Origin: Clostridiales bacterium
GTDB taxonomy: Bacteria > Bacillota > Clostridia > Oscillospirales > CAG-272
Reading direction: 5' to 3'
NCBI GenBank assembly: GCA_003522145.1
Contig: DPGD01000042.1
Span: 4,945 to 68,944 of the forward strand
DNA: 64,000 nt
Shown here: positions 3,422-49,052 of the stretch, one piece after another
Layout of the letters: each line of letters starts with the position of its first letter
How positions within the stretch are numbered: the first letter of the stretch is position 1
Translations under genes and position numbers: made by a program
Notes under the pieces: model-generated
Told to the model about the DNA's origin: nothing
Seen by the model: only the letters and a program-made list of their open reading frames with translations
Databases searched by the model: none

Positions 3422-5131
3422 TTATCCGATTTTGAAATCAAAAACCTGATTTTCCACCGTTCCAACCGTTTCCAGACCGATCACCTCGTTTTTGGTCAGC
3501 GCACTGTTGGAAAGGAAGGCGGCATGACAGAGGATTCCGACATCGGTCACATTCAGAGAACGCACTCCGGCATTGTAGAACGCGCCCATTCCGACCTCCT
3601 GCACGCCGGTCAGATCCACGACGCCCAGGGAGGTGCGTCCGAAGGCGCTCTCGGAGATGATTTCAAACGGCCGGAAGTTCACATTTTTGACCCCGCTGTA
3701 GGCAAAGGCGGAAATGCGCACCACCCGCAGTTCCGGGGACAAGGGAATATCCTCAACCTTGGTGTTGGAAAAAGCCTTACCGCCCACATCGGTAAATACG
3801 CCTTCAAAATGGAGTGTCTTGAAGGAGGAGCATCCCGAAAAGGCCGCTTCGCCTACCCTTACGGTGTCGGCAAGCAGAGTCAGCTCTTCTAAGGAGCTGT
3901 CTAAGAAGGCGTTCAGAAAAATATCCTTACAGGTAGAGGGAAGAGTGACCTTCCGAATATTCTTGTTTTCCTTGAAGCATTCCTTGTCAATGCCTACCAC
4001 GGTGTAGGAGCCGATCTTTTCGGGCACATTCACTTCTGCAGAAACGCCTCTGTATTTGGTGATCCTTGCGGTGTTGTCGGTGTAGATGCTGTAGGTAAAG
4101 TCTCCCGAAACCTGTCCCCTTTTGGTGCAATAGGGCATTTTGGAGGCCTTATCCGTGTATTGATAGCGTATATTCAGGGTGGCATAGCCCATATCGGTGA
4201 GCAGGTGCCTGTAAAGAGACAGTTGCTGTGCCTGCGCTCTGCTTCCCATGAACACAATGTGGGTCAGATTGCTGAACTGGTTTTCATTTACCTCAAACTG
4301 AACGACCGAAGAGGGAACCCGCATGGTAATCAGCTGCTCGGAGGCAAAGCTTCCGGAGCCGATTGTCCGGACGCTTGCGGGAATTTCCAAGAAGAACAGT
4401 CTGTTGTGGGTAAAATTGTCCTTGCCGACCGTTTCGATCCCGTAGGAAAGATTCAGGGTCTTCAGGCTCCAGCCGTCAAAGGCATGATCTCCGATGTGGC
4501 GCACCGAGGAGGAAATGCTGATGGTTTCGGCATCCTTCAGAATCCGGAAGGCGTTGTCGCCGATGGAGGTGATCCCGTTGTAGACCACAATGCTGTGTAC
4601 GGCCTTATTGTAGCCGGAAAAATAACTTTCCTCATCCGCCGGAAAGTCCGGGATCACGCCGATACCGGAAACCGCCAGTTCTCCGTTGTCATACAGCTTC
4701 CACACCACCTGACTGTTTTCATACTGTCCGCTGATGACAAGGGAAGGCTCCGCCTTTTCGCAGTAGATGCACTTCCGGTCCTTGTATTGATGGCCGTAGG
4801 CAGGGATGATCTTTCCGGTGCTTTCAAGAATGGCTCCGCAGTCGGTGCATTTCAGCCGATTCTCATAGCCGTCGGTGGTGCAGGTGGCATTCACTTTGGC
4901 TACTCCCTCGGTGTGGGGATGAGTACACCAGTCCGCCACAGGTGTCGGAAGCTCGGTGCCAGAAGTATCCGGTGACACAGAGGGCGTGTCGGAAGGAGGA
5001 CCGGAGGGACTTGTCTGAGCGTTCGGATCCTTTGTCGCATTCTGGGCGCAGGAGGTGAAAAGAAGGGTCAGCGCAAGAAAAAATGCGGTGCCCCAAGCCC
5101 ATGCTCTCCGAAAAGAATGATTGTTTTTCAT
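3422..5131 (-). CDS. Surface lipoprotein with BspA-type leucine-rich repeats
   Basis: Signal peptide plus lipobox (LTLLFTSC), S/T/P-rich linker, Cys-rich CT..C / C.YC segment, then many ~23-aa repeats of the ..I.IP.SV..IG..AF type (SIGDNAF, TIGSGSF, VGEAAFSGC, ISAFAYS). Confidence 0.8.
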   Translation of the reverse strand: MKNNHSFRRAWAWGTAFFLALTLLFTSCAQNATKDPNAQTSPSGPPSDTPSVSPDTSGTELPTPVADWCTHPHTEGVAKVNATCTTDGYENRLKCTDCGAILESTGKIIPAYGHQYKDRKCIYCEKAEPSLVISGQYENSQVVWKLYDNGELAVSGIGVIPDFPADEESYFSGYNKAVHSIVVYNGITSIGDNAFRILKDAETISISSSVRHIGDHAFDGWSLKTLNLSYGIETVGKDNFTHNRLFFLEIPASVRTIGSGSFASEQLITMRVPSSVVQFEVNENQFSNLTHIVFMGSRAQAQQLSLYRHLLTDMGYATLNIRYQYTDKASKMPYCTKRGQVSGDFTYSIYTDNTARITKYRGVSAEVNVPEKIGSYTVVGIDKECFKENKNIRKVTLPSTCKDIFLNAFLDSSLEELTLLADTVRVGEAAFSGCSSFKTLHFEGVFTDVGGKAFSNTKVEDIPLSPELRVVRISAFAYSGVKNVNFRPFEIISESAFGRTSLGVVDLTGVQEVGMGAFYNAGVRSLNVTDVGILCHAAFLSNSALTKNEVIGLETVGTVENQVFDFKIG

Positions 5132-6371: not shown

Positions 6372-6992
6372 TTAAAAACGATCCCCGGCGTTGTTGCGGA
6401 AAAAACATTCAATATGCTGATTCAGCAATCGGCCGAGAGTCTCTTTCTCCTTTGACGAATCGGATATACTCACCAGCAAATAGAGCGGAGCATAAAATTC
6501 AAGGGCAAGCTGTCGGGGATTTGCCTCCTTGAGAAGCCCCTTTTGCATCATTTGGACGAAGATGTCTTCCATATACGCCACCGGGCCGGCGGTCAGGCAA
6601 TTGCGGTACAACTCCGCCATCTCGGCGTTGCGGTACTGCTCTAAAGTCAGCATTTTCCGGAAATCGGAGGCGAAGCGGTCCCGGGACCAGAACTCGAACT
6701 GAGAAATCGTATATTTTTTGATGCTTTCAATGGACACCCTCCGATAGTCCTCCGGCCCTGCCTCGTAGGTTTCCTTCGGAACTTCATATTCTCCGGCCCT
6801 TTGGGCGTCGATCTGGTACATGCGCTCCACGATGCTGTCAAAAACAGCACGCTTGTTCCTGTAATGTTTATACAGCGCTCCTTTGGTGATGCCCAGCTCT
6901 GCGGCAATCCTACTGACCGAAACGGCCTCATAGCCGTCTCTTGCAAACAGGCGCAGGGCGGTTTGCAGGATGGTTTCTTTGGTATCGGACAT
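6372..6992 (-). CDS. TetR/AcrR family transcriptional regulator
   Basis: N-terminal HTH TILQTALRLFARDGYEAVSVSRIAAELGITKGALYKHYRNKRAVF. The Met at 6992 follows GAGGA. The longer ORF to 7271 has no family-like sequence. Confidence 0.9.
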   Translation of the reverse strand: MSDTKETILQTALRLFARDGYEAVSVSRIAAELGITKGALYKHYRNKRAVFDSIVERMYQIDAQRAGEYEVPKETYEAGPEDYRRVSIESIKKYTISQFEFWSRDRFASDFRKMLTLEQYRNAEMAELYRNCLTAGPVAYMEDIFVQMMQKGLLKEANPRQLALEFYAPLYLLVSISDSSKEKETLGRLLNQHIECFFRNNAGDRF

Positions 6993-7009
6993 TCCGGAAT
7001 CCTCACTTG

Positions 7010-7058
7010 GTGAACGATCGTTTACTAACAGTATAGTGAACGGTCGTTTACTTGTCAA
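7010..7058 (-). promoter_or_regulatory. TetR-operon promoter with two copies of a 16-bp palindromic operator
   Basis: The minus strand reads TTGACA-[aGTAAACGACCGTTCAC]-TATACT-gtta-[GTAAACGATCGTTCAC]. One palindrome fills the 17-nt spacer and the second lies 4 nt downstream of the -10, over the predicted start site. Sites are at 7036-7051 and 7010-7025. Confidence 0.75.
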
Positions 7059-7120
7059 GAGGATTTTGGAAAAAAGCAGGCAGAATTTATAAATTTTTTC
7101 GGTCGTTCCGGAAAACATCG

Positions 7121-7157
7121 AACCGGCGGCAGAGCTTTGACCCTCTGCCGCCGGTTT
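7121..7157 (-). terminator. Hairpin terminator after the HprK-like gene
   Basis: AACCGGCGGCAGAG-loop-CTCTGCCGCCGGTT, a 14-bp perfect stem. The U-tract on the minus strand is weak. Confidence 0.55.
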
Positions 7158-7314
7158 TGTATGCGGGAAGTATTCTTTTTGGCGTGGAATAAATGCTTTG
7201 ATGTTTTCCCTTCTTCCTGTCCGTTCCAAAGGTGTTTTGGAGCAGTGCCCCTCTTGTTCACGGGGAATCAAAGAGCGTATTCCTCTTCAAAGAGAACCTT
7301 GTTGAAAAAGGAAC

Positions 7315-8043
7315 TCAGATTTGGGTGCCGGTCAGGGTGCGGAAAGACAGTTCGGCGGCTTCTTCTGAAATGTTGCAGGAAAGAAGATACAGAGGCGCCG
7401 AGAAGAGCAGTCGGTCGGTCAGCTTCAGCATTCCGGTCAGAAGTGCGGGCTCCTTGGGAAAAAGAATCTGTTGCAATGCTCTGGAAGAGCCTTCTTCAGG
7501 TGTCAGCCGACGGATGCGGTTCTGCGGGCTTTGCTCCAGAAAACAGATGCCCCGAAGCTCCCCGGAAATGTTGTTCTGCCAGCCTTCCTTTCCCGCCCAG
7601 GGGGTGCCGTATACCCGGAAGGTTCCCTCTTGAGTCAGCCGTAAAATGGGCTTGTCGCCGTTGATGACGGCCAGTTCTTTGCCGAAACGGCGCATCCACA
7701 AGCGAAGGTGGGTGGATTTGCCGGTACCGCTGGGGGCAGAGAAGATGTAGGCGCTGTCTCCCTGTTTCACAGCGGCGGAATGAAAGAGAAAGGCGTTGTA
7801 GCGGGGAAGCTCCAGACAGATTTTTCTATAAAGACAGACACTTTCACAATAGCCCATCAAGTCCGGGATCGTGTTTTTCAGTTCTTCGGTGCATTTGGAA
7901 AGCTCCTCTGCCAGCTCTTTTTCGCCTGCCGAAACGGTGAATACGGGTGCTTCGGAAGAGAAATAGTCCGCACATTGCTTCCGGACGAATGCGTAGCGAT
8001 GGTCAATGCCGATGGGGACTCCGGCAAGAAGAATGGAGAACAT
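7315..8043 (-). CDS. Uncharacterized P-loop protein resembling the HPr kinase/phosphorylase C-terminal domain
   Basis: 242 aa with Walker A in FSAPSGTGKSTHLRLW, followed by INGDKPILR and YGTPWAGKEG. No HprK N-terminal domain and no partner genes nearby. Confidence 0.6.
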   Translation of the reverse strand: MFSILLAGVPIGIDHRYAFVRKQCADYFSSEAPVFTVSAGEKELAEELSKCTEELKNTIPDLMGYCESVCLYRKICLELPRYNAFLFHSAAVKQGDSAYIFSAPSGTGKSTHLRLWMRRFGKELAVINGDKPILRLTQEGTFRVYGTPWAGKEGWQNNISGELRGICFLEQSPQNRIRRLTPEEGSSRALQQILFPKEPALLTGMLKLTDRLLFSAPLYLLSCNISEEAAELSFRTLTGTQI

Positions 8044-8126
8044 ACAGATTTCTTCCTTTCAAAATGAGATTCAACGAGAGTATACCATATTTTTTAGCAT
8101 TTGTCACCGGAAATTCGGATTTTTTC

Positions 8127-8155
8127 TTGCTTTTCCAAAAAAAAGAGGGTATAAT
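8127..8155 (+). promoter_or_regulatory. Candidate birA promoter
   Basis: TTGCTT, a 17-nt spacer and TATAAT. Implies a leader of roughly 137 nt before the birA ATG. Confidence 0.55.
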
Positions 8156-8201
8156 TCAAGGGAAGAGGGCTTTCCGGCAGGGGAAAAGAGTCCTTCTTCG
8201 G

Positions 8202-8289
8202 AAAAGGCCGGAATATCCGGCGGAAAAACCGGAACACACGGTGGGAAAGAAGCCGGAACAACGGCGGAAAGGGCCGCAGGGGGTCTTGG
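8202..8289 (+). repeat. Imperfect tandem repeat of about 21-24 nt (3-4 units) in the birA leader
   Basis: Units are AAAAGGCCGGAATATCCGGCGG, AAAAACCGGAACACACGGTGGG and AAAGAAGCCGGAACAACGGCGG, plus a degenerate AAAGGGCCGCAGGGGGTCTTGG. The CCGGAA cores are at 8208, 8229 and 8253. Confidence 0.6.
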
Positions 8290-8298
8290 GAGGCAACA

Positions 8299-9273
8299 AT
8301 GTCACTGAAAGAAGAAATACTCTACAATCTGGAATGCGCACGGCGGGAGGACCGGGAGCTTTCCGGCGAGGAATTGGCGGGGAAGCTGGGCGTGAGCCGG
8401 ATGGCGGTCTGTAAGGCGGTCAATACTCTGCGCGAGGAAGGTGTGGAAATATCCTCCCGGCGGGGAGGGGGCTACCGGATGGCTCGGCAGGACCTTTTGT
8501 CAGAGGGGCGGGTCCGGGCTCATCTGCCGGGAGAATGTATGGGCTTGAAGATCACGGTTTACGGAGAGACCGACTCCACCAACAAACGGGCAAAGCTCTT
8601 TGCGGAAGAAGGAAATTTCACAGGGGAAGCTCTTTTTGTTGCCGACAGCCAAACGGCAGGCAGAGGGCGCCTGGGCAGAAGCTTCTATTCGCCGGCATCT
8701 ACGGGGCTGTACCTTTCCTACCTTTTTTCTTCAGAGGCTCCCTTACAGACTCTGACGGCGGTTACGCCCTATGCCGCTGTTTCGGTGGCCAAGATTCTGG
8801 AGCGTTATACCGAAAAGAAGATCCTTATAAAATGGGTCAATGACCTGTACAGCGAGGGAAGAAAGGTCTGCGGGATTCTGACCGAAGCCCTGACCTCTCT
8901 GGAATCGGGAGGAGATAACCGGGTGGTGGTGGGCATCGGCATCAATCTGAACACCGAGATTTTTCCCGAAGAGCTGTCCGAAAAGGCCGGATCCCTTGGA
9001 TGCAGACCCGACCGATCTATTCTGGCGGCAGAGATCGCTTCCCGGCTCCATGCCTTTGCCCGAGAGCCCTGGAAACGCACCTTTATGCAAGAATATACCC
9101 GTCGTTCCATGGTTTTAGGAAGACGGGTGGTTCTGGACTGTTGGGGCGCCCGGACCGAAGGGGTGGCGGTGGGCTTTGACGAAAACGGAGGGCTGTTTCT
9201 GGACACCGGCAAGGGCGAACCGGAGTTGTTTACAGGAGGGGAGATTTCTCTCCGGCTTTCCGGGAAAGAGTAA
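8299..9273 (+). CDS. birA: Bifunctional biotin-[acetyl-CoA-carboxylase] ligase / biotin operon repressor
   Basis: N-terminal winged HTH (LSGEELAGKLGVSRMAVCKAVNTLREEG) and ligase motif QTAGRGRLGRSFYSP. 324 aa. Confidence 0.92.
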   Translation: MSLKEEILYNLECARREDRELSGEELAGKLGVSRMAVCKAVNTLREEGVEISSRRGGGYRMARQDLLSEGRVRAHLPGECMGLKITVYGETDSTNKRAKLFAEEGNFTGEALFVADSQTAGRGRLGRSFYSPASTGLYLSYLFSSEAPLQTLTAVTPYAAVSVAKILERYTEKKILIKWVNDLYSEGRKVCGILTEALTSLESGGDNRVVVGIGINLNTEIFPEELSEKAGSLGCRPDRSILAAEIASRLHAFAREPWKRTFMQEYTRRSMVLGRRVVLDCWGARTEGVAVGFDENGGLFLDTGKGEPELFTGGEISLRLSGKE

Positions 9274-9811
9274 ATTTCGGATAGATCATCGGCCTCAGCC
9301 GTGTTACAAGGATGGCAGAAAGGATGACCTTGGCGCAGTCCGGCAGAATGTAGGGAATCACTGCGGAAAGAAGGATGTATGAAAGACCCTTATCGGGCAT
9401 ATAGATATACAACCCTATGGTGCCTGCAAGGTAGCAAACAAGCACTTCTCCCACGAATAAGAGCAGAATATGGTAGAATTTCGGCTTTTTCAGAGCTTTT
9501 AAGGGTAGGGAAATCAACAGGAACGATGGCAGGAATCCAAGGAGAAATCCGCCGGTGGGCCCGAAAAGGGCGCCTATCCCCCCCTGAAATCCGGCAAAGA
9601 CCGGAACGCCCAAAGCCCCTAAAAGAAGGTAGGCAAGAATGGAAGCAAAAGCATAGACGAGGGGAAATAACCCGGAAATCAGAAGAACGGCGAAAAGCTG
9701 AAGGGTGAATTTCAGATCTCCGAAGGTCAGGGTAATGAAGGCGCAAACGGCAATCAGTGCCGTGCCTAAGGCGGTCATGGTCAGGGGAAACAGAGTGCGT
9801 TTGATTTTCAT
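9230..9811 (-). CDS. bioY: Biotin transporter BioY (ECF S-component)
   Basis: MKIKRTLFPLTMTALGTALIAV..., with GVPVFAGFQGGIGALFGPTGGFLLGF typical of BioY. Its 3-prime end overlaps the birA 3-prime end by 44 nt on the opposite strand. Confidence 0.9.
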   Translation of the reverse strand: MKIKRTLFPLTMTALGTALIAVCAFITLTFGDLKFTLQLFAVLLISGLFPLVYAFASILAYLLLGALGVPVFAGFQGGIGALFGPTGGFLLGFLPSFLLISLPLKALKKPKFYHILLLFVGEVLVCYLAGTIGLYIYMPDKGLSYILLSAVIPYILPDCAKVILSAILVTRLRPMIYPKFTLSRKAGEKSPLL

Positions 9812-9843
9812 ACAGAGCAAATCCTTTCAATTGGTAAAATTCA

Positions 9844-9874
9844 TTGTAAACTGTATAGAAAGTTTGGTTTACAA
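9844..9874. promoter_or_regulatory. BirA operator upstream of bioY
   Basis: Perfect inverted repeat TTGTAAAC-N15-GTTTACAA, 33 nt upstream of the bioY start. It matches the Firmicute BirA box pattern TGTWAAC-N(14-16)-GTTWACA. Confidence 0.8.
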
Positions 9875-43177: not shown

Positions 43178-44476
43178 TCAGGTCAATTCATAGCCGCCGC
43201 AGACCATTCTGAAAGAACCTTCAAAAAGAGCCCGGCACAGTTCAATCATATAGGCCGTGTCCTTGATTCCGGCGCTTTCATAGGCAGAATGCATGGCAAG
43301 CTGGGGCAAGCCCACATCGGCAGAGGAAACGGAAACCCTTGTGGTGGCGATATTGCCTAAGGTAGAGCCGCCGCCCATATCCGACCGATTGGCATAACTC
43401 TGCACCGGAATGCCCTCTTTTTTACAGAGGTATTTCACATAGGCTTCGGAGATGCCGTCGGTGGTGTATTTCTGACCGGCATTGAATTTCAGAACCACAC
43501 CGCCGTTCAGGACCACCCGGTTCTCCGGATCGGCATATTCCGGGTGATTGGGATGCACCGCATGAGCGTTGTCGCAGGAAAGAAGGAAAGAGGAAGCAAG
43601 TGCTTGTAAATAGTCCTCTTCCGCAGGACAGATGCGCCTTAAAACATCGTAAAGGAATGTGGAGGCCGCCCCCTGCCGGGTTCCGGAGCCTACCTCTTCG
43701 TTGTCAAAGACGGCACAGACCGGCAGAGATTTTCCTGCTTTGGCCGCGAGAAAGCCCTTCAGCGTGGAGAAGGCGCATTGCAGATCGTCTAAGGCCCTTG
43801 AGGAGATGTATTCCTGATTGCAGCCCCAGATGCAACCCTTTTGCCGTGCATAAACATAAAGGTCCTGCCCTAAAATTTTCTCCTCCTCCACACCCAGTTC
43901 TTGGGCAACCAGACTTAAAAACCGGCCTTTGGATTCTTTGCCGCCGAAAAGCGGGACGGTGTCTACCGCCGGATTGTATTTCATGCCGTCGTTGGCATTG
44001 CGGTTCATGTGGATAGCCACCGAGGGAATGAGCAACAGATCCCGATCGATATTCAGAAGCCGCATCTCCATACCCCGGTCGGTCTCCACCAGCACTCTTC
44101 CGGCCACCGACAGGGGTCTATCCAACCAGGTGGAGCAGATCATTCCGCCGTAACGCTCGGTGTTCAGCCGGACAAATTCGCCGGTCAGCTCCCCCTTGTC
44201 CTTGATCTTGAAGCAGGGATAATCGCTGTGGGCGGCGGAAATGCTGAAGCCGGTATAGTCCTTTTGGTAGCGGAAGGCAATGACGGAGCTGCCGTTCCGG
44301 CAGACAAAATAGCCCTTTCCCTCTTCCGGATTCCATTTTTCGCTTTCTTTGAGCTCGGTATAGCCCTCCTTTTCCAGCAGGGAGGATATGGTTTGCACGG
44401 CATGAAAGGAGCTGGGACTGGCATCAATAAAGTCCAAAAGCTCGGTGGCAAGTGCTTTTTCTTCATAGTTCTTCAT
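43178..44476 (-). CDS. M18-family aminopeptidase, second paralog
   Basis: FIDASPSSFHAV, SAAHSDYPCFKIK, FDNEEVGSGTRQGA, and the C-terminal GLPQLAMHS. Confidence 0.88.
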   Translation of the reverse strand: MKNYEEKALATELLDFIDASPSSFHAVQTISSLLEKEGYTELKESEKWNPEEGKGYFVCRNGSSVIAFRYQKDYTGFSISAAHSDYPCFKIKDKGELTGEFVRLNTERYGGMICSTWLDRPLSVAGRVLVETDRGMEMRLLNIDRDLLLIPSVAIHMNRNANDGMKYNPAVDTVPLFGGKESKGRFLSLVAQELGVEEEKILGQDLYVYARQKGCIWGCNQEYISSRALDDLQCAFSTLKGFLAAKAGKSLPVCAVFDNEEVGSGTRQGAASTFLYDVLRRICPAEEDYLQALASSFLLSCDNAHAVHPNHPEYADPENRVVLNGGVVLKFNAGQKYTTDGISEAYVKYLCKKEGIPVQSYANRSDMGGGSTLGNIATTRVSVSSADVGLPQLAMHSAYESAGIKDTAYMIELCRALFEGSFRMVCGGYELT

Positions 44477-44655
44477 GGTGAAATTCCTTTCTTGGGGACA
44501 TAAAGAAAAGTTTTTCCGAGGATATTCCTCTCTTCGCCTATTCTATCATATTTCCATCCGGTTTTCAATATCCTTTCTTCTGAAATTCTTCTGAATATTG
44601 GGAAAACTCTTTGCGGTGGTTCTGAAAGTTAATACCTTTTTGTCTGATGTTGCTA

Positions 44656-44684
44656 TTTACATTTCTGTAAAAAAATGGTATAAT
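44656..44684 (+). promoter_or_regulatory. Promoter of the 103-aa HTH gene
   Basis: TTTACA, a 17-nt spacer ending in TGG, and TATAAT (extended -10). Confidence 0.65.
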
Positions 44685-44728
44685 TCAGGTGAAAAAGGAA
44701 GTCGGGATGCCGACAGAAAGGGGAAAAA

Positions 44729-45040
44729 ATGGAAGGACGAGACAAACACTACAGACCCAGTCGAGGGATAGAGCGTGCCTGCGGGGGAATTCTGGAATCG
44801 GTACATAGCTGGCCCTATACGGAATACATGGAGCTGGCCGGAAGCTGTGTGGGACGGGATTGGGACGAAAAACAGCAGAAAAACCTTTGCGAAGCCATCA
44901 AGCTGAATCTGATCAACCGTAAGGAATACCCCTTTGAGGTGTTGCAGAGAAAATACGGGCTTCCTTGCAGTCAGAAGCTGTTCCGGAAAGAATCCAGAAA
45001 ATTCATAAGAATTTTTTCGGGACTGTGCGGTTTTGAGTAA
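44729..45040 (+). CDS. Small phage-type transcriptional regulator (ArpU/RinA-like C-terminal HTH), hypothetical
   Basis: 103 aa. The C-terminus FEVLQRKYGLPCSQKLFRKESRKFIRIFSGLCGFE resembles the region-4-like HTH tail of phage late regulators. This rests on pattern recognition only. Confidence 0.5.
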   Translation: MEGRDKHYRPSRGIERACGGILESVHSWPYTEYMELAGSCVGRDWDEKQQKNLCEAIKLNLINRKEYPFEVLQRKYGLPCSQKLFRKESRKFIRIFSGLCGFE

Positions 45041-45330
45041 ACAGGGCTTTGGGGTCTTTCGGACTGAACACCCGTGCCGTGTGCGTTCCTTTGTCCCGGA
45101 AGGCGGAAAAACCGTTTAAGACCGAAGCACCGGGTTGTTTTGGCACATCTGCGATGCCCAAAAGAGAATGTTGCTCCGGCATATAAATGAAAGGTCCTAT
45201 TTCGGTTGGTACAATACCACTGTATGTTTTTTGTTGTAATTTACTGTCGACAGTTTCTTTCGATATCGCATCAGTTGTAACGCTGCACACAACATTTTTT
45301 TAAAAATATTAAAAAAATGACCAAAAAAAC

Positions 45331-45359
45331 TTGACAAAACAATCGATATGTGATACACT
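45331..45359 (+). promoter_or_regulatory. Promoter of the DUF4279-like cassette
   Basis: TTGACA, a 17-nt spacer ending in TGA, and TACACT, located in a very AT-rich stretch. Confidence 0.65.
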
Positions 45360-45400
45360 AAAAACAAAGAAAGACTCATTCGTATCGGAGGTGCGTTGGG

Positions 45401-45598
45401 ATGCGGTTCTGTTCGGAAGCCTTGAGCGATATTGGTTTTGGATCGGTGCCCCTTTTTGAAAGTGATTTGAAAAACGGAGAGAGAAAGTATAATCTTCAGA
45501 TCCTTTATTTTGGCGCACAGCATTCACGGGGGTGCTGTGCGCCTTTTCAGATCGGCAATGTGTTGGATGGAAGAGCACAATGCTGTTTGCGGAATTGA
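45401..45598 (+). CDS. Candidate 65-codon leader ORF / small Cys-containing peptide
   Basis: The ATG lies 7 nt after GGAGGTG, the best SD in the locus. The ORF contains the terminator-like hairpin and ends 19 nt inside the next gene. No homology recognised. Confidence 0.35.
   Translation: MRFCSEALSDIGFGSVPLFESDLKNGERKYNLQILYFGAQHSRGCCAPFQIGNVLDGRAQCCLRN
45512..45547 (+). terminator. Intrinsic-terminator-like hairpin inside the cassette leader (candidate attenuator)
   Basis: GGCGCACAGCA-ttcacggggg-TGCTGTGCGCC (11-bp perfect stem) followed by TTTTC, 33 nt before the ATG at 45580. Confidence 0.55.
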
Positions 45599-45855
45599 AT
45601 GAAGAAAGGCTTATAAAGTCCGGTCGTTCGGTGGGAGAAACCGTGGTAACAACGGATGCGCAGTATGTCCATATGAGTACAGAATTGGCGAATCAGGTTG
45701 CACAGTACCACGGATTTGCGGGTGCTGAGGAATTCAAGGCCGCACATGGAGTGGGCTCCAAAGGATGGATGGCATATTATCCCGCAACGGGTCAGATCGT
45801 GATTACCGTTGAAGGGGCGGTTTTAGGTACGGAGTATTATGGAGGCTGGAGATGA
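45580..45855 (+). CDS. Hypothetical 91-aa protein
   Basis: MLFAELNEERLIKSGRSVGE...GTEYYGGWR. Stop overlaps the next start (ATGA). No family recognised. Confidence 0.55.
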   Translation: MLFAELNEERLIKSGRSVGETVVTTDAQYVHMSTELANQVAQYHGFAGAEEFKAAHGVGSKGWMAYYPATGQIVITVEGAVLGTEYYGGWR

Positions 45856-46649
45856 AAAAATATCCCGGAAGCGTAGGGAGCAGGGCACCGATTGCAGAAG
45901 CTGCATTGAATATTTACGGTGAGATCGCTCCCGGAATTCTGACAAAGGAGTTGGACTTGGAGCCCACATATACGGGGGACGGTTGTTGGCGGCTTTCCAC
46001 CGGAAGGTTTATTTGTTCCGATACTGCGTATGCTACCGATGCACTGTTGGGGTGCTTGGCATCCCGATACGATGCGTTGAGAGAGCTTTGCAGTACGCAC
46101 GGATTGCGTTCGGAGCTGGTGTTGACCCTGAATGTTGCAGAGGATCGGTTTCCCGAGGGAACGATCTCCCAAGAGTGTCTGCGTTTTCTGCACGAAACGG
46201 GAAGCAGTCTCTCCTTAAAAAACGAATATGAGAACGGAAGCGGGTTGTTGCCCGATTGCAGACTGCGCTACGGACTTTGGTTCAGAAGCAAAGACCTGCG
46301 TGCAGAGGATGTGACCGAAAGACTCCGGATAGAGCCGGATCATGTATTGGAGAAGGAAAAACTGTCAGGCGGTGTGACGGACAGAAGAAACGCATGGCTG
46401 TTGCGTACAGAGCTCCTGCCCTTTGAAGAGCAATCGCAGGCTTGCAAGGACTTTTGCAGCAAATTTATTGCCTGTGAAAGGGAAATCATCGAACTGCTTC
46501 GCATGAAGGAGACGGATGCGGAGCTTGACCTTTCTCTTTATACCGGTCGTTGCTCCTTTGATGCGCTTGTTCTTCCAAGGGAGCTGACCGAGCTTGCTTA
46601 CAGAATCGGAACCGAGATCTATCTCGGATTCTATGCCGTTCCCCGATAA
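45852..46649 (+). CDS. Protein with two tandem DUF4279-like domains
   Basis: Each half follows the DUF4279 pattern. It starts with a short strand ending in ..L.(I/L)EPT/D.. (LDLEPTYTGDGCWRLSTG and LRIEPDHV...RRNAWLLRTE). A helical middle follows, then an ending of the ..L.L..Y type (SLSLKNEY and EIYLGFY). GGAGG RBS. Confidence 0.6.
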   Translation: MKKYPGSVGSRAPIAEAALNIYGEIAPGILTKELDLEPTYTGDGCWRLSTGRFICSDTAYATDALLGCLASRYDALRELCSTHGLRSELVLTLNVAEDRFPEGTISQECLRFLHETGSSLSLKNEYENGSGLLPDCRLRYGLWFRSKDLRAEDVTERLRIEPDHVLEKEKLSGGVTDRRNAWLLRTELLPFEEQSQACKDFCSKFIACEREIIELLRMKETDAELDLSLYTGRCSFDALVLPRELTELAYRIGTEIYLGFYAVPR

Positions 46650-46714
46650 AAGCTGTATAGCGATAGCCTGCAGTCGTATTTTCGAATGAGAGGGTAAGCA
46701 GGTTGTAGGAAAAC

Positions 46715-46755
46715 GGGGCTGTTAAAAAATTCCGAAAGATTTTTTTAACAGCCCC
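46715..46755 (+). terminator. Solo family-R terminal hairpin acting as terminator of the DUF4279-like cassette
   Basis: GGGGCTGTTAAAAAA-ttccgaaaga-TTTTTTTAACAGCCCC followed by TTTTCTTTT. The loop TTCCGAAAGA is identical to that of the hairpin at 20869-20909. Confidence 0.8.
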
Positions 46756-47039
46756 TTTTCTTTTGGAGACCGACAATGGGCGCAGAAGGGAACGGGGCGG
46801 TGCTTTTCGGGTTGTATGCCCATTTGTTGTTGCATTCTGTTCCGGAGGAGGAAAAAGAAGCGGCCAATGGCAAAGAGGCGGTGTGCAGTGCAGTCCGGAA
46901 CAGAAGTCCGATGTTGGAAAATGCCCGGTTTTTTGAAGGAAGGAGAAGAACTTTTGGGCTTGACAGGTGAAGAAGAATATAGTAAAATAGACACTGGCGG
47001 GAAGGGCGAAGGTAGGGCTGAACCCCGGAAGGAGAAGGG

Positions 47040-49052
47040 ATGATCGGAAAAGAATTTTTACCGGTGACCTTGGAAGAGTGCAGAGAAAGAGGCTGGGACA
47101 GACCGGATTTTGTCTATGTGACGGGAGATGCCTATGTAGACCATCCTTCTTTCGGCGTGGCAATTATTTCAAGGGTGCTGGAAAAAGCAGGCTTTCGGGT
47201 CGCAATACTGCCTCAGCCCGACTATAAATCCGCCGCAGAGTTCAAAAAATTCGGAAAGCCCAGGCTCGGATTTCTGGTGACCTCCGGAAACATTGACTCC
47301 ATGGTAGCGCACTACACCGTTTCATTGAAGAAACGGACCTACGACTACTATACGCCGGGAGGCGTGATGGGCAAGCGCCCCGACCGGGCGGTGATTGTCT
47401 ACTGCAACAGAATCCGGGAGGCCTATGGCGATGTTCCCATCATCATCGGGGGCTTGGAAGCGTCCCTGCGGCGTTTTGCCCATTACGATTATTGGAGCGA
47501 TCAGGTGCGCCGCAGTATTTTGGTGGATTCCAGAGCGGATCTTCTTTCCTACGGGATGGGCGAGAAGAGCATCGTCCGCATTGCAAAGCTTTTGGACAAG
47601 GGCGTTCCCGTAAAGAAGATTCAGGATGTGCGGGGCACGGTCTATCTGACGGATCGGCAAGACAAGGTGCATTATCCCTTTATCGAGGGCTGTGAATACG
47701 ATGACCTGAAAACCGACAAGGAGCTTTACGCCAGAACCTTCGGCATTCAGTACCGGAATCAGGATGCGATTTCAGGCAAGGCTCTCACCGAGTATTACGA
47801 CCGGAGGATGCTGGTGCAGAATCCGCCTATGCCTCCTTTGGAGCGGGAGGAGCTGGACGAGGTTTACGGCCTGCCCTATATGCGGGATTGGCATCCGATG
47901 TATAGGGAAGCCGGCGGAGTGCCGGCAATCAATGAGGTGAAATTCTCCATCACGCATAACAGAGGGTGTTTCGGCTCCTGCAACTTCTGTGCGCTGACCT
48001 TTCATCAGGGACGGGTGGTGCGCTCCAGAAGTATGGGATCGGTGGTGAAAGAAGCGGAAGAAATCGTTCAGTTGCCCGATTTCAAGGGCTACATACACGA
48101 TGTGGGCGGACCCACGGCCAATTTCCGCTATCCGGCCTGTGACAAGCAGGTGAAATACGGGGTTTGTCCGGACAGGCGGTGTCTGGCGCCCAAGCCCTGC
48201 GCCCAACTGAAGGTGGATCATAGCGAATACGGGGAGCTGTTGCGCCGGGTGGGGGCGGTCAAGGGCGTTAAAAAGGTCTTTGTCCGGTCGGGCATTCGGT
48301 TTGACTATCTGATGTACGATCCGGATGACCGTTTTTTCAGACAGCTCGTCAAGGATCATGTGAGCGGACAGATGAAGGTGGCACCCGAGCATATCTGCCC
48401 CGGTGTGCTGAACCAGATGGGAAAGCCTCCGGTGGAGGTTTATGAGGCATTCCGGGAAAAGTATTTCAAAATCACAAAGGAAATCGGAAAAGAGCAGTAT
48501 CTGGTGCCCTATCTGATGTCCAGCCATCCGGGAAGCACCCTGAAGGATGCGGTGGAAATGGCGCTGTATCTGAAAAAATGGGGGTATTCGCCGGAGCAGG
48601 TTCAGGACTATTATCCTACCCCCGGTACGGTTTCGACCTGTATGTACCACACCGGTATAGACCCGCTGACCATGAAGAGGGTCTATGTGGCCACAGACTA
48701 TCAGGAGAAAAGGCTTCAGCGGGTGCTCTTGCAGTACAGCCGCCCGGAAAACCGGGATCTGGTGGAGCAGGCGCTGCGAAAAGCGGGCAGAGAAGATCTG
48801 ATCGGGTTTGGAAAAGAATGCCTTATAAAGCCCGGAAAAGCAGGCGCCGGACAAAAGAAACGGGAAATTGTTCCGGAAAACAAGGGGCGTAAGACGAATA
48901 GCCGACGCAACGGCAGGACCGGGACGGTGGAGGATTTGACGGGAATCAAGGGTTCAAAAAGAGACTTCCGGCAAAAAAAGCCGCAGGTTTCCCCGGCAGG
49001 GGATTATAAAACACACAAAATAAGCAGAAAAGGAAAGGGTTTATCCAAATGA
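47040..49052 (+). CDS. ygiQ: YgiQ-family (UPF0313) radical SAM protein
   Basis: [39 protein letters not shown] is a typical YgiQ N-terminus. Radical SAM cluster [16 protein letters not shown]. Basic C-terminal tail. Confidence 0.9.

Follow-up and report, generated by a model that had tools for sequence, protein, structure and literature searches.

The stretch of DNA analysed here (the window: 64,000 nucleotides, positions 4,945 to 68,944 of contig DPGD01000042.1 in the Clostridiales bacterium assembly GCA_003522145.1) carries a two-gene module at 45331-46764. Its genes are two coupled open reading frames (ORFs), which we call B and C. We consider it probable that the module consists of a degenerating gene for a Sec-exported, possibly Ntox33-like effector (B) and a retained immunity gene that encodes a tandem DUF4279 protein (C), and that it now provides immunity only. 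The parts of the module, all on the plus strand, are as follows.

45331..45359 (+), promoter-like site P2, TTGACA-17-TACACT, 10 of 12 matches, with a TG extension; it serves B and C together with their leader
45401..45598 (+), leader ORF of 65 codons in the window, preceded by a GGAGGTG Shine-Dalgarno sequence
45512..45547 (+), intrinsic terminator in the leader, upstream of B; a perfect 14-bp stem with a 4-nt loop (45512-45543), followed by UUUU
45549..45579 (+), deletion scar between the leader terminator and B
45580..45855 (+), ORF B, 91 aa
45852..46649 (+), ORF C, 265 aa, joined to B by an ATGA overlap
46715..46764 (+), terminal hairpin and T-run, a copy of the family-R palindromic repeat; terminator of the unit

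ORF C matches the Pfam model of DUF4279 (PF14106) in two stretches, with E = 2.9e-11 and 44.1 bits against a cut-off of 25. Taken alone, the N-terminal half passes the 25-bit cut-off with 29.2 bits; the C-terminal half, which covers profile positions 2-113, stays below it with 19.7 bits (E = 1e-3). Compared with each other by hhalign, the profiles of these halves align over 109 columns with E = 3.4e-4. An earlier note on this DNA, made from the sequence alone, had read the 265-aa protein as two consecutive DUF4279-like domains, and these results bear it out. An AlphaFold2 model of C computed from five sequences has two alpha/beta halves, with a predicted template-modelling score (pTM) of 0.74 and a predicted local distance difference test score (pLDDT) of 72. 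The top Foldseek matches of this model in the PDB are ferredoxin-like (ACT domains, cyclases and S6), all with E above 0.05. The protein lacks a signal peptide and any hydrophobic segment or N-terminus and is predicted to be cytoplasmic. Searches of NCBIfam, PHROG and PADLOC with C gave nothing. Of 401 genomes sampled evenly across the phylum, 18 contain DUF4279. The open frames of the 17 other intact matches measure 130-180 aa, and this locus alone has one of 278 aa; as the sole case among the intact matches, the tandem form is unusual.

The earlier note also held that DUF4279 has no established function, a statement that is out of date. The family has been described as FdL-Imm5, a predicted ferredoxin-like immunity family of polymorphic toxin systems, and Ntox33 is listed among the toxins blocked by FdL families (Li, Tan and Zhang, PMC9424270). 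A 2026 survey of type VI secretion systems (T6SS) in Salmonella found an Rhs-Ntox33 effector whose partner is a DUF4279 gene (PMC13304343). We inspected ten canonical DUF4279 loci from the phylum sample: two single-domain genes (L046 and L049) directly follow genes for RHS/YD proteins that end in PF15533 Ntox33 (65.6 and 35.3 bits), and a third (L052) follows an RHS-core-end fragment. ORF C is accordingly predicted to be an immunity protein. At L052 (624-1145, 2264-2542) the C-terminal domain of the RHS-core-end fragment has no Pfam match but looks like Ntox33 (YGIDKNKL...). With the second orphan RHS end that comes later, the locus is a typical orphan toxin-immunity array.

No family was found for ORF B in Pfam, NCBIfam, PHROG or PADLOC, in agreement with the earlier note, which had recognised none for the 91-aa protein. 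Run exhaustively over 1.84 billion representatives, phmmer returned five clear distant relatives (P0029-P0033) of 116-124 aa, which are 40-52% identical to B over its residues 19-91 (E from 1.8e-13 to 2.7e-7), together with a few matching fragments. Two large proteins, P0034 and P0038, were considered as polymorphic toxins carrying the B domain and rejected as spurious repeat matches. Scans of genome and metagenome contigs for B yielded one distant locus (L018) and otherwise close copies only, and none was found in viral contigs. The window's own genome holds no paralogs of B, of C or of the neighbouring ORF A.

The intact relatives share one layout: a signal peptide, a short acidic linker and a domain of about 66 aa that ends, as ...YGGW[KR], at the stop codon. 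Their N-termini appear typical of Sec signal peptides: a basic n-region comes first, then a hydrophobic core of 15 residues (Kyte-Doolittle 2.2-3.1, compared with only 0.3 in window B). Residues V40, A41, H44, G45, A49, E50 and K53 are invariant in the family, and the window protein has Tyr67 where its relatives have Asp or Asn. In the AlphaFold2 model of window B residues 1-25 are disordered and confidence is high from residue 30 or so onwards (pLDDT block means of 83-92 across residues 31-90), with the elements in the order beta-alpha-alpha-beta-beta-beta. This alpha+beta domain (residues 26-91, about 66 aa) is still open in the window. The family to which ORF B thus belongs, one of small exported proteins, is rare, unnamed and absent from Pfam.

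The two genes keep company over large evolutionary distances. In six divergent lineages the gene directly downstream of the B homolog is C-like, and in three of them its product is DUF4279-like by hidden Markov model (HMM). The distant loci are these.

L025, L026 and L027: B of 122 aa, a 1-nt gap, then a 265-aa protein 24% identical to C (PF14106, E = 1.2e-6)
L029: B of 116 aa, then a DUF4279-like gene cut at 206 aa (E = 1.6e-4)
L023: B of 121 aa, then a DUF4279-like fragment (E = 2e-3)
L024: B of 123 aa; the product of the adjacent gene has a C-like N-terminus, which aligns with the N-terminus of the L025 protein
L022: B of 124 aa; the next gene overlaps it by 4 nt, and its 29 visible residues form a C-like N-terminus

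Identity among homologs is 40-50% for B and 22-26% for C, B being the slower-evolving partner. The earlier note had suggested that the pair is a small conflict or toxin-immunity module. That suggestion gains from the adjacency of the genes in distant loci, from the predicted immunity role of DUF4279 and from the position of DUF4279 genes behind RHS toxins that end in Ntox33; the converse case, in which homologs of the pair never occur together, is not what the six lineages show.

The state of the two genes was compared with a sister genome, L012 (GCA_963651215.1), which has the same synteny and about 86% identity in the flanks, and with same-species contigs that are about 98% identical. The matching contigs come from gut metagenome sources, in line with an uncultured gut bacterium of the Clostridia type as the host. 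At the scar, L012 has about 100 nt more than the window, bounded by TCGGCAAT and TCGATAAT; this extra segment has a Shine-Dalgarno sequence and an ATG, and it encodes the signal peptide MKNKRIFLILIAIFSIMCMMGKLNT in the same frame as MLFAELNE.... Since all the distant relatives have a signal peptide, it is the window lineage that has lost it. ORF B of the window is therefore 5'-truncated: its ribosome-binding site, start codon and signal peptide are gone. The L012 copy of B has a 19-nt deletion of its own, which shifts the frame, and the P0006 allele, found on 19 contigs, has a 1-nt deletion in B 23 nt upstream of the L012 deletion site. There may be a fourth lesion in P0007, whose N-terminus differs from B as far as the GAEEFK motif. 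The 91-aa gene is the partner of C, as the earlier note had it; what the note overlooked is that this gene is the damaged remnant of a gene for a secreted protein.

ORF C is intact and under purifying selection. It is 265 aa long in every full-length copy, including the cluster representative P0001, L010 and L012, and its comparison with L012 gives 31 synonymous and 22 nonsynonymous differences, a ratio of nonsynonymous to synonymous divergence (dN/dS) of 0.19. The corresponding ratio for B, 0.28-0.40, comes from 13 changes, too few to be informative.

The module looks mobile. It is patchily distributed rather than syntenic in all relatives: the six other species in the genus lack it, and so do 34 related species outside the genus. 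An empty site was sought in congeners and none was found, since ORF A, the M18 gene and ygiQ are not syntenic there. Measured against L012, the synonymous divergence (dS) of the window reaches 0.60 in ORF A and 0.69 in ygiQ, compared with 0.19 in C and about 0.1 in B. Nucleotide identity with L012 is 0.82-0.90 in the flanks and 0.89-0.98 over 45571-46665 (L012 1683-2750). These values suggest that B-C is younger than its surroundings, and they fit horizontal spread or recombinational exchange between the lineages after their split. The L025 pair (6389-9868), the most complete of the distant ones, adjoins an HTH_36 gene and genes for a coupling protein of the TraG/VirD4 type, as in type IV secretion systems (T4SS), and for a DUF3991-Toprim primase. 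It is preceded by six genes without a Pfam family. From the neighbouring conjugation genes, this pair appears to sit on a conjugative element.

A number of results weigh against the reading of B as a decaying toxin gene and C as a retained immunity gene. One concerns the condition of B. The open 91-aa frame with its ATGA overlap is the commonest allele (58 member sequences in P0004 and 17 in P0003), and B may on that account still be expressed in the cytoplasm. A rival explanation starts here: the two genes would be a live cytoplasmic pair resembling a toxin-antitoxin (TA) system, in which a 91-aa B made from the internal ATG at 45580 is held by C, and the module would serve in addiction or abortive infection. 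The whole conserved part of B (residues 19-91) is open and the ATGA coupling is preserved, the B region is 91-98% identical to L012, above the flanks, and the B ATG has a GGAAGAG motif 5 nt ahead of it, all of which such a pair would explain. As a Shine-Dalgarno sequence, however, this motif is weak, and a terminator stands just upstream of B. That frameshifted B alleles persist in many samples (P0006 on its 19 contigs, L012 and P0007) shows that strains tolerate the loss of B. At a position where the relatives conserve Asp or Asn, the window lineage has Tyr. No PADLOC model for anti-phage defence or type II TA systems matched A, B or C, and TA family matches were likewise absent. The dN/dS of B, being uninformative, lends the live pair no help. 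We regard this explanation as improbable.

The other adverse results bear on whether B is, or was, a toxin. In favour of a toxin, the B domain has the same length as Ntox33 (about 65 aa) and the same extreme C-terminal position, and it shows a remote profile similarity to that family. Searched at E up to 10, nine members of the B family gave no match to PF15533 Ntox33 and no significant match to any Pfam toxin family; the window's own genome has no PF15533 match either. When the B-domain profile is aligned by hhalign with the C-terminal domains of Ntox33 proteins, the match is weak (E = 0.013 with L046 and L049, 0.006 when L052 is added), and only 2-3 of 300 column-shuffled profiles attain the observed score. 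The aligned motifs are HG..AE..K...G and ..NMY.[DN]T.T.E[IV]V in B, and [LH]G[IV]DAH.LK...LG and ..Y[DN][IV]Y.D....[EL] in Ntox33. A His-Lys-Asp triad is conserved in Ntox33 (PMC9424270). Lys53 of B aligns with the triad lysine. The position of the published catalytic histidine is occupied by the invariant Glu50, the invariant His44 lying six residues earlier, and the aspartate position is Asp or Asn in the B relatives and Tyr67 in the window, so that the triad as such is not reproduced in B. No further Ntox33 sequences were found in the family of G145. The link between B and Ntox33, as seen in these alignments, is suggestive.

Structure comparison does not add to it. A Foldseek search with the model of B against the PDB and BFVD found nothing significant (best E 1.2 and 0.4), and matches to the colicin D tRNase (E 2.5-3.9 over 24 columns) were dismissed as noise. 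A sequence-profile search of the PDB with the B family also gave nothing significant. The model of C is of moderate confidence only and has no significant structural neighbour in the PDB. No B-like domain was found at the end of large polymorphic toxins. The mature protein of about 75 aa, with no recognisable entry or receptor domain, would have no obvious way into target cells. At L018, finally, one degraded B homolog has no C gene downstream. We consider a toxin role for B, homologous or analogous to that of Ntox33, fairly probable.

A function outside conflict would need no toxin at all. On this alternative, B would be a small non-toxic protein, secreted or anchored in the membrane, that serves for instance as a signal, an enzyme or an accessory to an adhesin, and C would be a cytoplasmic chaperone or sensor with a ferredoxin-like fold. 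It draws on the failure to find a toxin family or fold match for B in Pfam, the PDB or BFVD, on the many functions of ferredoxin-like folds (PMC9424270) and on the fact that the immunity role of DUF4279 was itself predicted from gene neighbourhoods. The architecture argues otherwise: a small exported protein tightly coupled to a cytoplasmic DUF4279 protein resembles an effector with its immunity protein. The patchy distribution and mobile-element context fit such pairs, as does the decay of one partner while the other is kept, and canonical DUF4279 genes directly adjoin those of Ntox33 toxins. We give this alternative little credence.

Our preferred reading, a degenerating effector gene beside a retained immunity gene, can be put as a sequence of steps. 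In the ancestral locus P2 would have driven a leader of about 180 nt that ended in an intrinsic terminator, followed by the two genes. Ancestral B would have been a small Sec-exported protein with a signal peptide, a short linker and a domain of about 66 aa, probably a toxin distantly related to Ntox33. Ancestral C, tightly coupled to B, would have been a cytoplasmic tandem DUF4279 protein that bound B and neutralised it in the producer. A deletion then took the ribosome-binding site, start codon and signal peptide of B, and sister strains added independent frameshifts, while C stayed intact. At present the locus would most likely be immunity-only, guarding against the same toxin from neighbours. 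Transcription of C would start at P2 and read through the leader terminator, and translation would use C's own Shine-Dalgarno sequence (GGAGG at 45838-45842, inside the end of B).

The earlier note described a leader of about 215 nt. A leader does lie behind P2, and the promoter is kept in L012; the intrinsic terminator at its end, upstream of B, had been overlooked. Transcription is predicted to start near 45366, which gives about 180 nt of RNA up to the hairpin. The hairpin folds at -26.9 kcal/mol (z -7.0), and one of its stem pairs covaries, being C-G in the window, U-G in the L010 group and U-A in L012. On the strength of this fold and the compensatory series, the leader terminator is real. 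The leader ORF has 39 codons in L012, L006 and L004, where its TAG stop lies within the 5' arm of the terminator. The window has CAG instead of TAG at 45518-45520, and its leader frame passes the hairpin to reach 65 codons. Conservation of the leader peptide is confined to its first 16 residues. On reaching the end of the leader ORF, a ribosome would sit on the 5' arm of the hairpin and thereby favour read-through. Translation-coupled attenuation is therefore a reasonable hypothesis, and the CAG allele may alter such an attenuator. Rfam covariance models (E up to 5, 44300-47200) gave nothing relevant for the leader, and Rfam scans of the whole window and of the leaders of related loci gave nothing relevant either. 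A leader motif shared across B-C loci was sought and rejected: only the short words GGATGCGGTT and GAGCGATAT are common with L025, which is too little.

At the other end of the unit, the closing hairpin that the earlier note had assigned to family R is a strong fold (46715-46755, -29 kcal/mol, z -5.4) and a copy of a genome-wide repeat. BLAST finds copies of this repeat, 88-98% identical, on at least 15 contigs, and it sits at expected terminator positions.

The surroundings of the module contain the following features.

43178-44476, minus strand, M18 aminopeptidase gene, the 5' flank
44656..44684 (+), promoter-like site P1, TTTACA-17-TATAAT, 11 of 12 matches, with an extended -10 TG
44729..45040 (+), ORF A, 103 aa
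45303..45310, AT-rich 8-bp site, the insertion point of an IS1595-family transposase gene and a GNAT acetyltransferase gene in L004 and L005
47040-49052, YgiQ-type radical SAM gene, the 3' flank

Much of what the earlier note had described here is confirmed. The M18 and ygiQ genes are the flanks, and between them lie three plus-strand ORFs of 103, 91 and 265 aa, the last two with the ATGA overlap; the two near-consensus promoters, both with the TG extension, are present at 44656 and 45331. The description of the whole as a compositionally distinct, low-GC cassette of three genes fares less well. The host genome (2.03 Mb in 58 contigs) has a G+C content of 50.7%. That of ORFs A, B and C is 48.7, 50.0 and 51.3%, respectively, close to the genome mean, and it is the intergenic parts that are low, at 36-44%. 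Within the ORFs only the third codon positions are poorer in G+C, at 0.48-0.56 compared with 0.64 in the flanking genes. The module is made up of two genes rather than three, B and C, and is not compositionally foreign; P1 serves ORF A and not the module.

In the cassette of the earlier note, ORF A was a phage-type helix-turn-helix (HTH) protein of the ArpU/RinA type and the dedicated regulator of a B-C operon. The gene adjoins B-C on the same strand in both the window and L012, it has a strong promoter of its own, and 15 of 16 members of its family weakly match the phage family phrog_11237, of unknown function (best E 6.6e-4). This phage family is the sole match. Neither an HTH nor an ArpU/RinA family was found for ORF A and 15 homologs in Pfam or NCBIfam, ORF A has no Pfam family of any kind, and a sequence-profile search of the PDB with its family gave nothing significant. 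Homologs of A occur in at least four unrelated neighbourhoods, none of them with B-C, and relatives of B-C are found without an A gene beside them. Compared with L012, ORF A has a dN/dS of 0.045 and a dS, 0.60, three times that of C; the latter is a chromosome-like value, unlike those of B-C (0.1-0.2).

In L004 and L005, which represent other strains of the same species, an insertion sequence (IS) element and the acetyltransferase gene separate A from B-C. The inserted genes (L004 1308-3154), for a transposase of 345 aa and an acetyltransferase of 203 aa, lie in the spacer just upstream of P2, and the 8-bp overlap of the insertion flanks looks like a target-site duplication. The spacer between A and P2 is a variable region within the species. 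On contig L007 (516-616) about 190 nt of it (window 45134-45323) are exchanged for about 100 nt of other sequence.

The regulator model is thus largely refuted, and we now think it very improbable. ORF A is a bystander, a small clade-conserved protein independent of B-C. It has 20 homologs at 52-75% identity, which are strongly conserved in the C-terminal half and share Cys18, Cys80 and Cys100. The family, of about 104 aa, has the motif AIKLNLINxKEYPF..LLQRKY.LPC..K.FR.E along with its three conserved cysteines and is a family of small proteins in these Clostridia.

Pairs of Ntox33 and DUF4279 (FdL-Imm5) are known from RHS/T6SS systems and from the S8-PTS/ABP polymorphic toxin systems (PMC9424270, PMC13304343, PMC13460014). 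The module resembles them in that a DUF4279 gene lies directly downstream of, and is coupled to, a gene ending in an alpha+beta domain of about 65 aa; the same adjacency is seen in L046 and L049, and the cytoplasmic immunity protein and the patchy, mobile-element-associated distribution are further points of likeness. The effector, however, would be a protein of 116-124 aa (signal peptide, linker and domain) and not a large RHS, LXG or BetaH protein. Its domain is unrecognised by the Pfam Ntox33 model and does not conserve the H-K-D triad. The immunity protein is a tandem one of 265 aa, unlike those in the 130-180-aa frames of the 17 other intact matches in our sample, and no S8 protease gene was seen beside any B-C copy.

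The ABP/S8-PTS systems of Gram-positive bacteria (AbpT, AbpP and AbpI) likewise combine a Sec-exported diffusible toxin with a cytoplasmic immunity protein, and DUF4279 is among their immunity families. The B relatives differ from such toxins in having no BetaH domain and only about 25 residues between the signal peptide and the domain. An adjacent S8 peptidase gene (Peptidase_S8) is absent from the window, L012, L025 and L029. The signal peptide of the ABP/S8-PTS toxins has its counterpart in the intact B relatives, but not in window B.

In barnase-barstar, a secreted ribonuclease is accompanied by an intracellular inhibitor. The likeness lies in a small Sec-exported alpha+beta domain with a cytoplasmic protector of the producer, although no sequence or fold relation to B was found. 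In the bacteriocin, contact-dependent inhibition (CDI) and Rhs loci that hold orphan immunity genes or degraded toxin genes, the toxin gene gathers deletions and frameshifts and the immunity gene is kept under purifying selection. The present locus follows this pattern, B accumulating lesions while C stays intact under purifying selection. It departs from it in two ways: in the B remnant the loss is confined to the part for export and initiation, with the whole domain still open, and the locus has its own promoter and a leader terminator.

Beyond the window itself, we tentatively suggest that the intact relatives are a minimal, contact-independent toxin class of gut Clostridia that has not been described before, although we think this rather unlikely to hold in full. 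The effector would be an Ntox33-like protein, Sec-secreted, of about 75 aa when mature and without a delivery domain. It would be neutralised by a tandem DUF4279 protein acting as a pseudo-dimer, and the pair would be governed by a translation-sensing leader, the 39-codon ORF that stops in the 5' arm of the terminator. If this were true, the window would record a step from toxin producer to immune non-producer.

The locus in the window is a remnant and the principle of an effector with its immunity protein is well known, so the finding is useful more than surprising. It gives the rare tandem-DUF4279 architecture a concrete partner, an unnamed family of small secreted proteins. It would also carry the Ntox33/DUF4279 theme beyond the giant RHS and ABP toxins, to a minimal effector that stands alone. 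The strains of one human-gut species show a probable toxin gene in decay while the gene predicted to give immunity is kept, which bears on bacteriocin-like warfare in gut communities. The intact homologs would provide a small system in which to ask how a protein of about 75 aa without a delivery domain reaches a cytoplasmic target.

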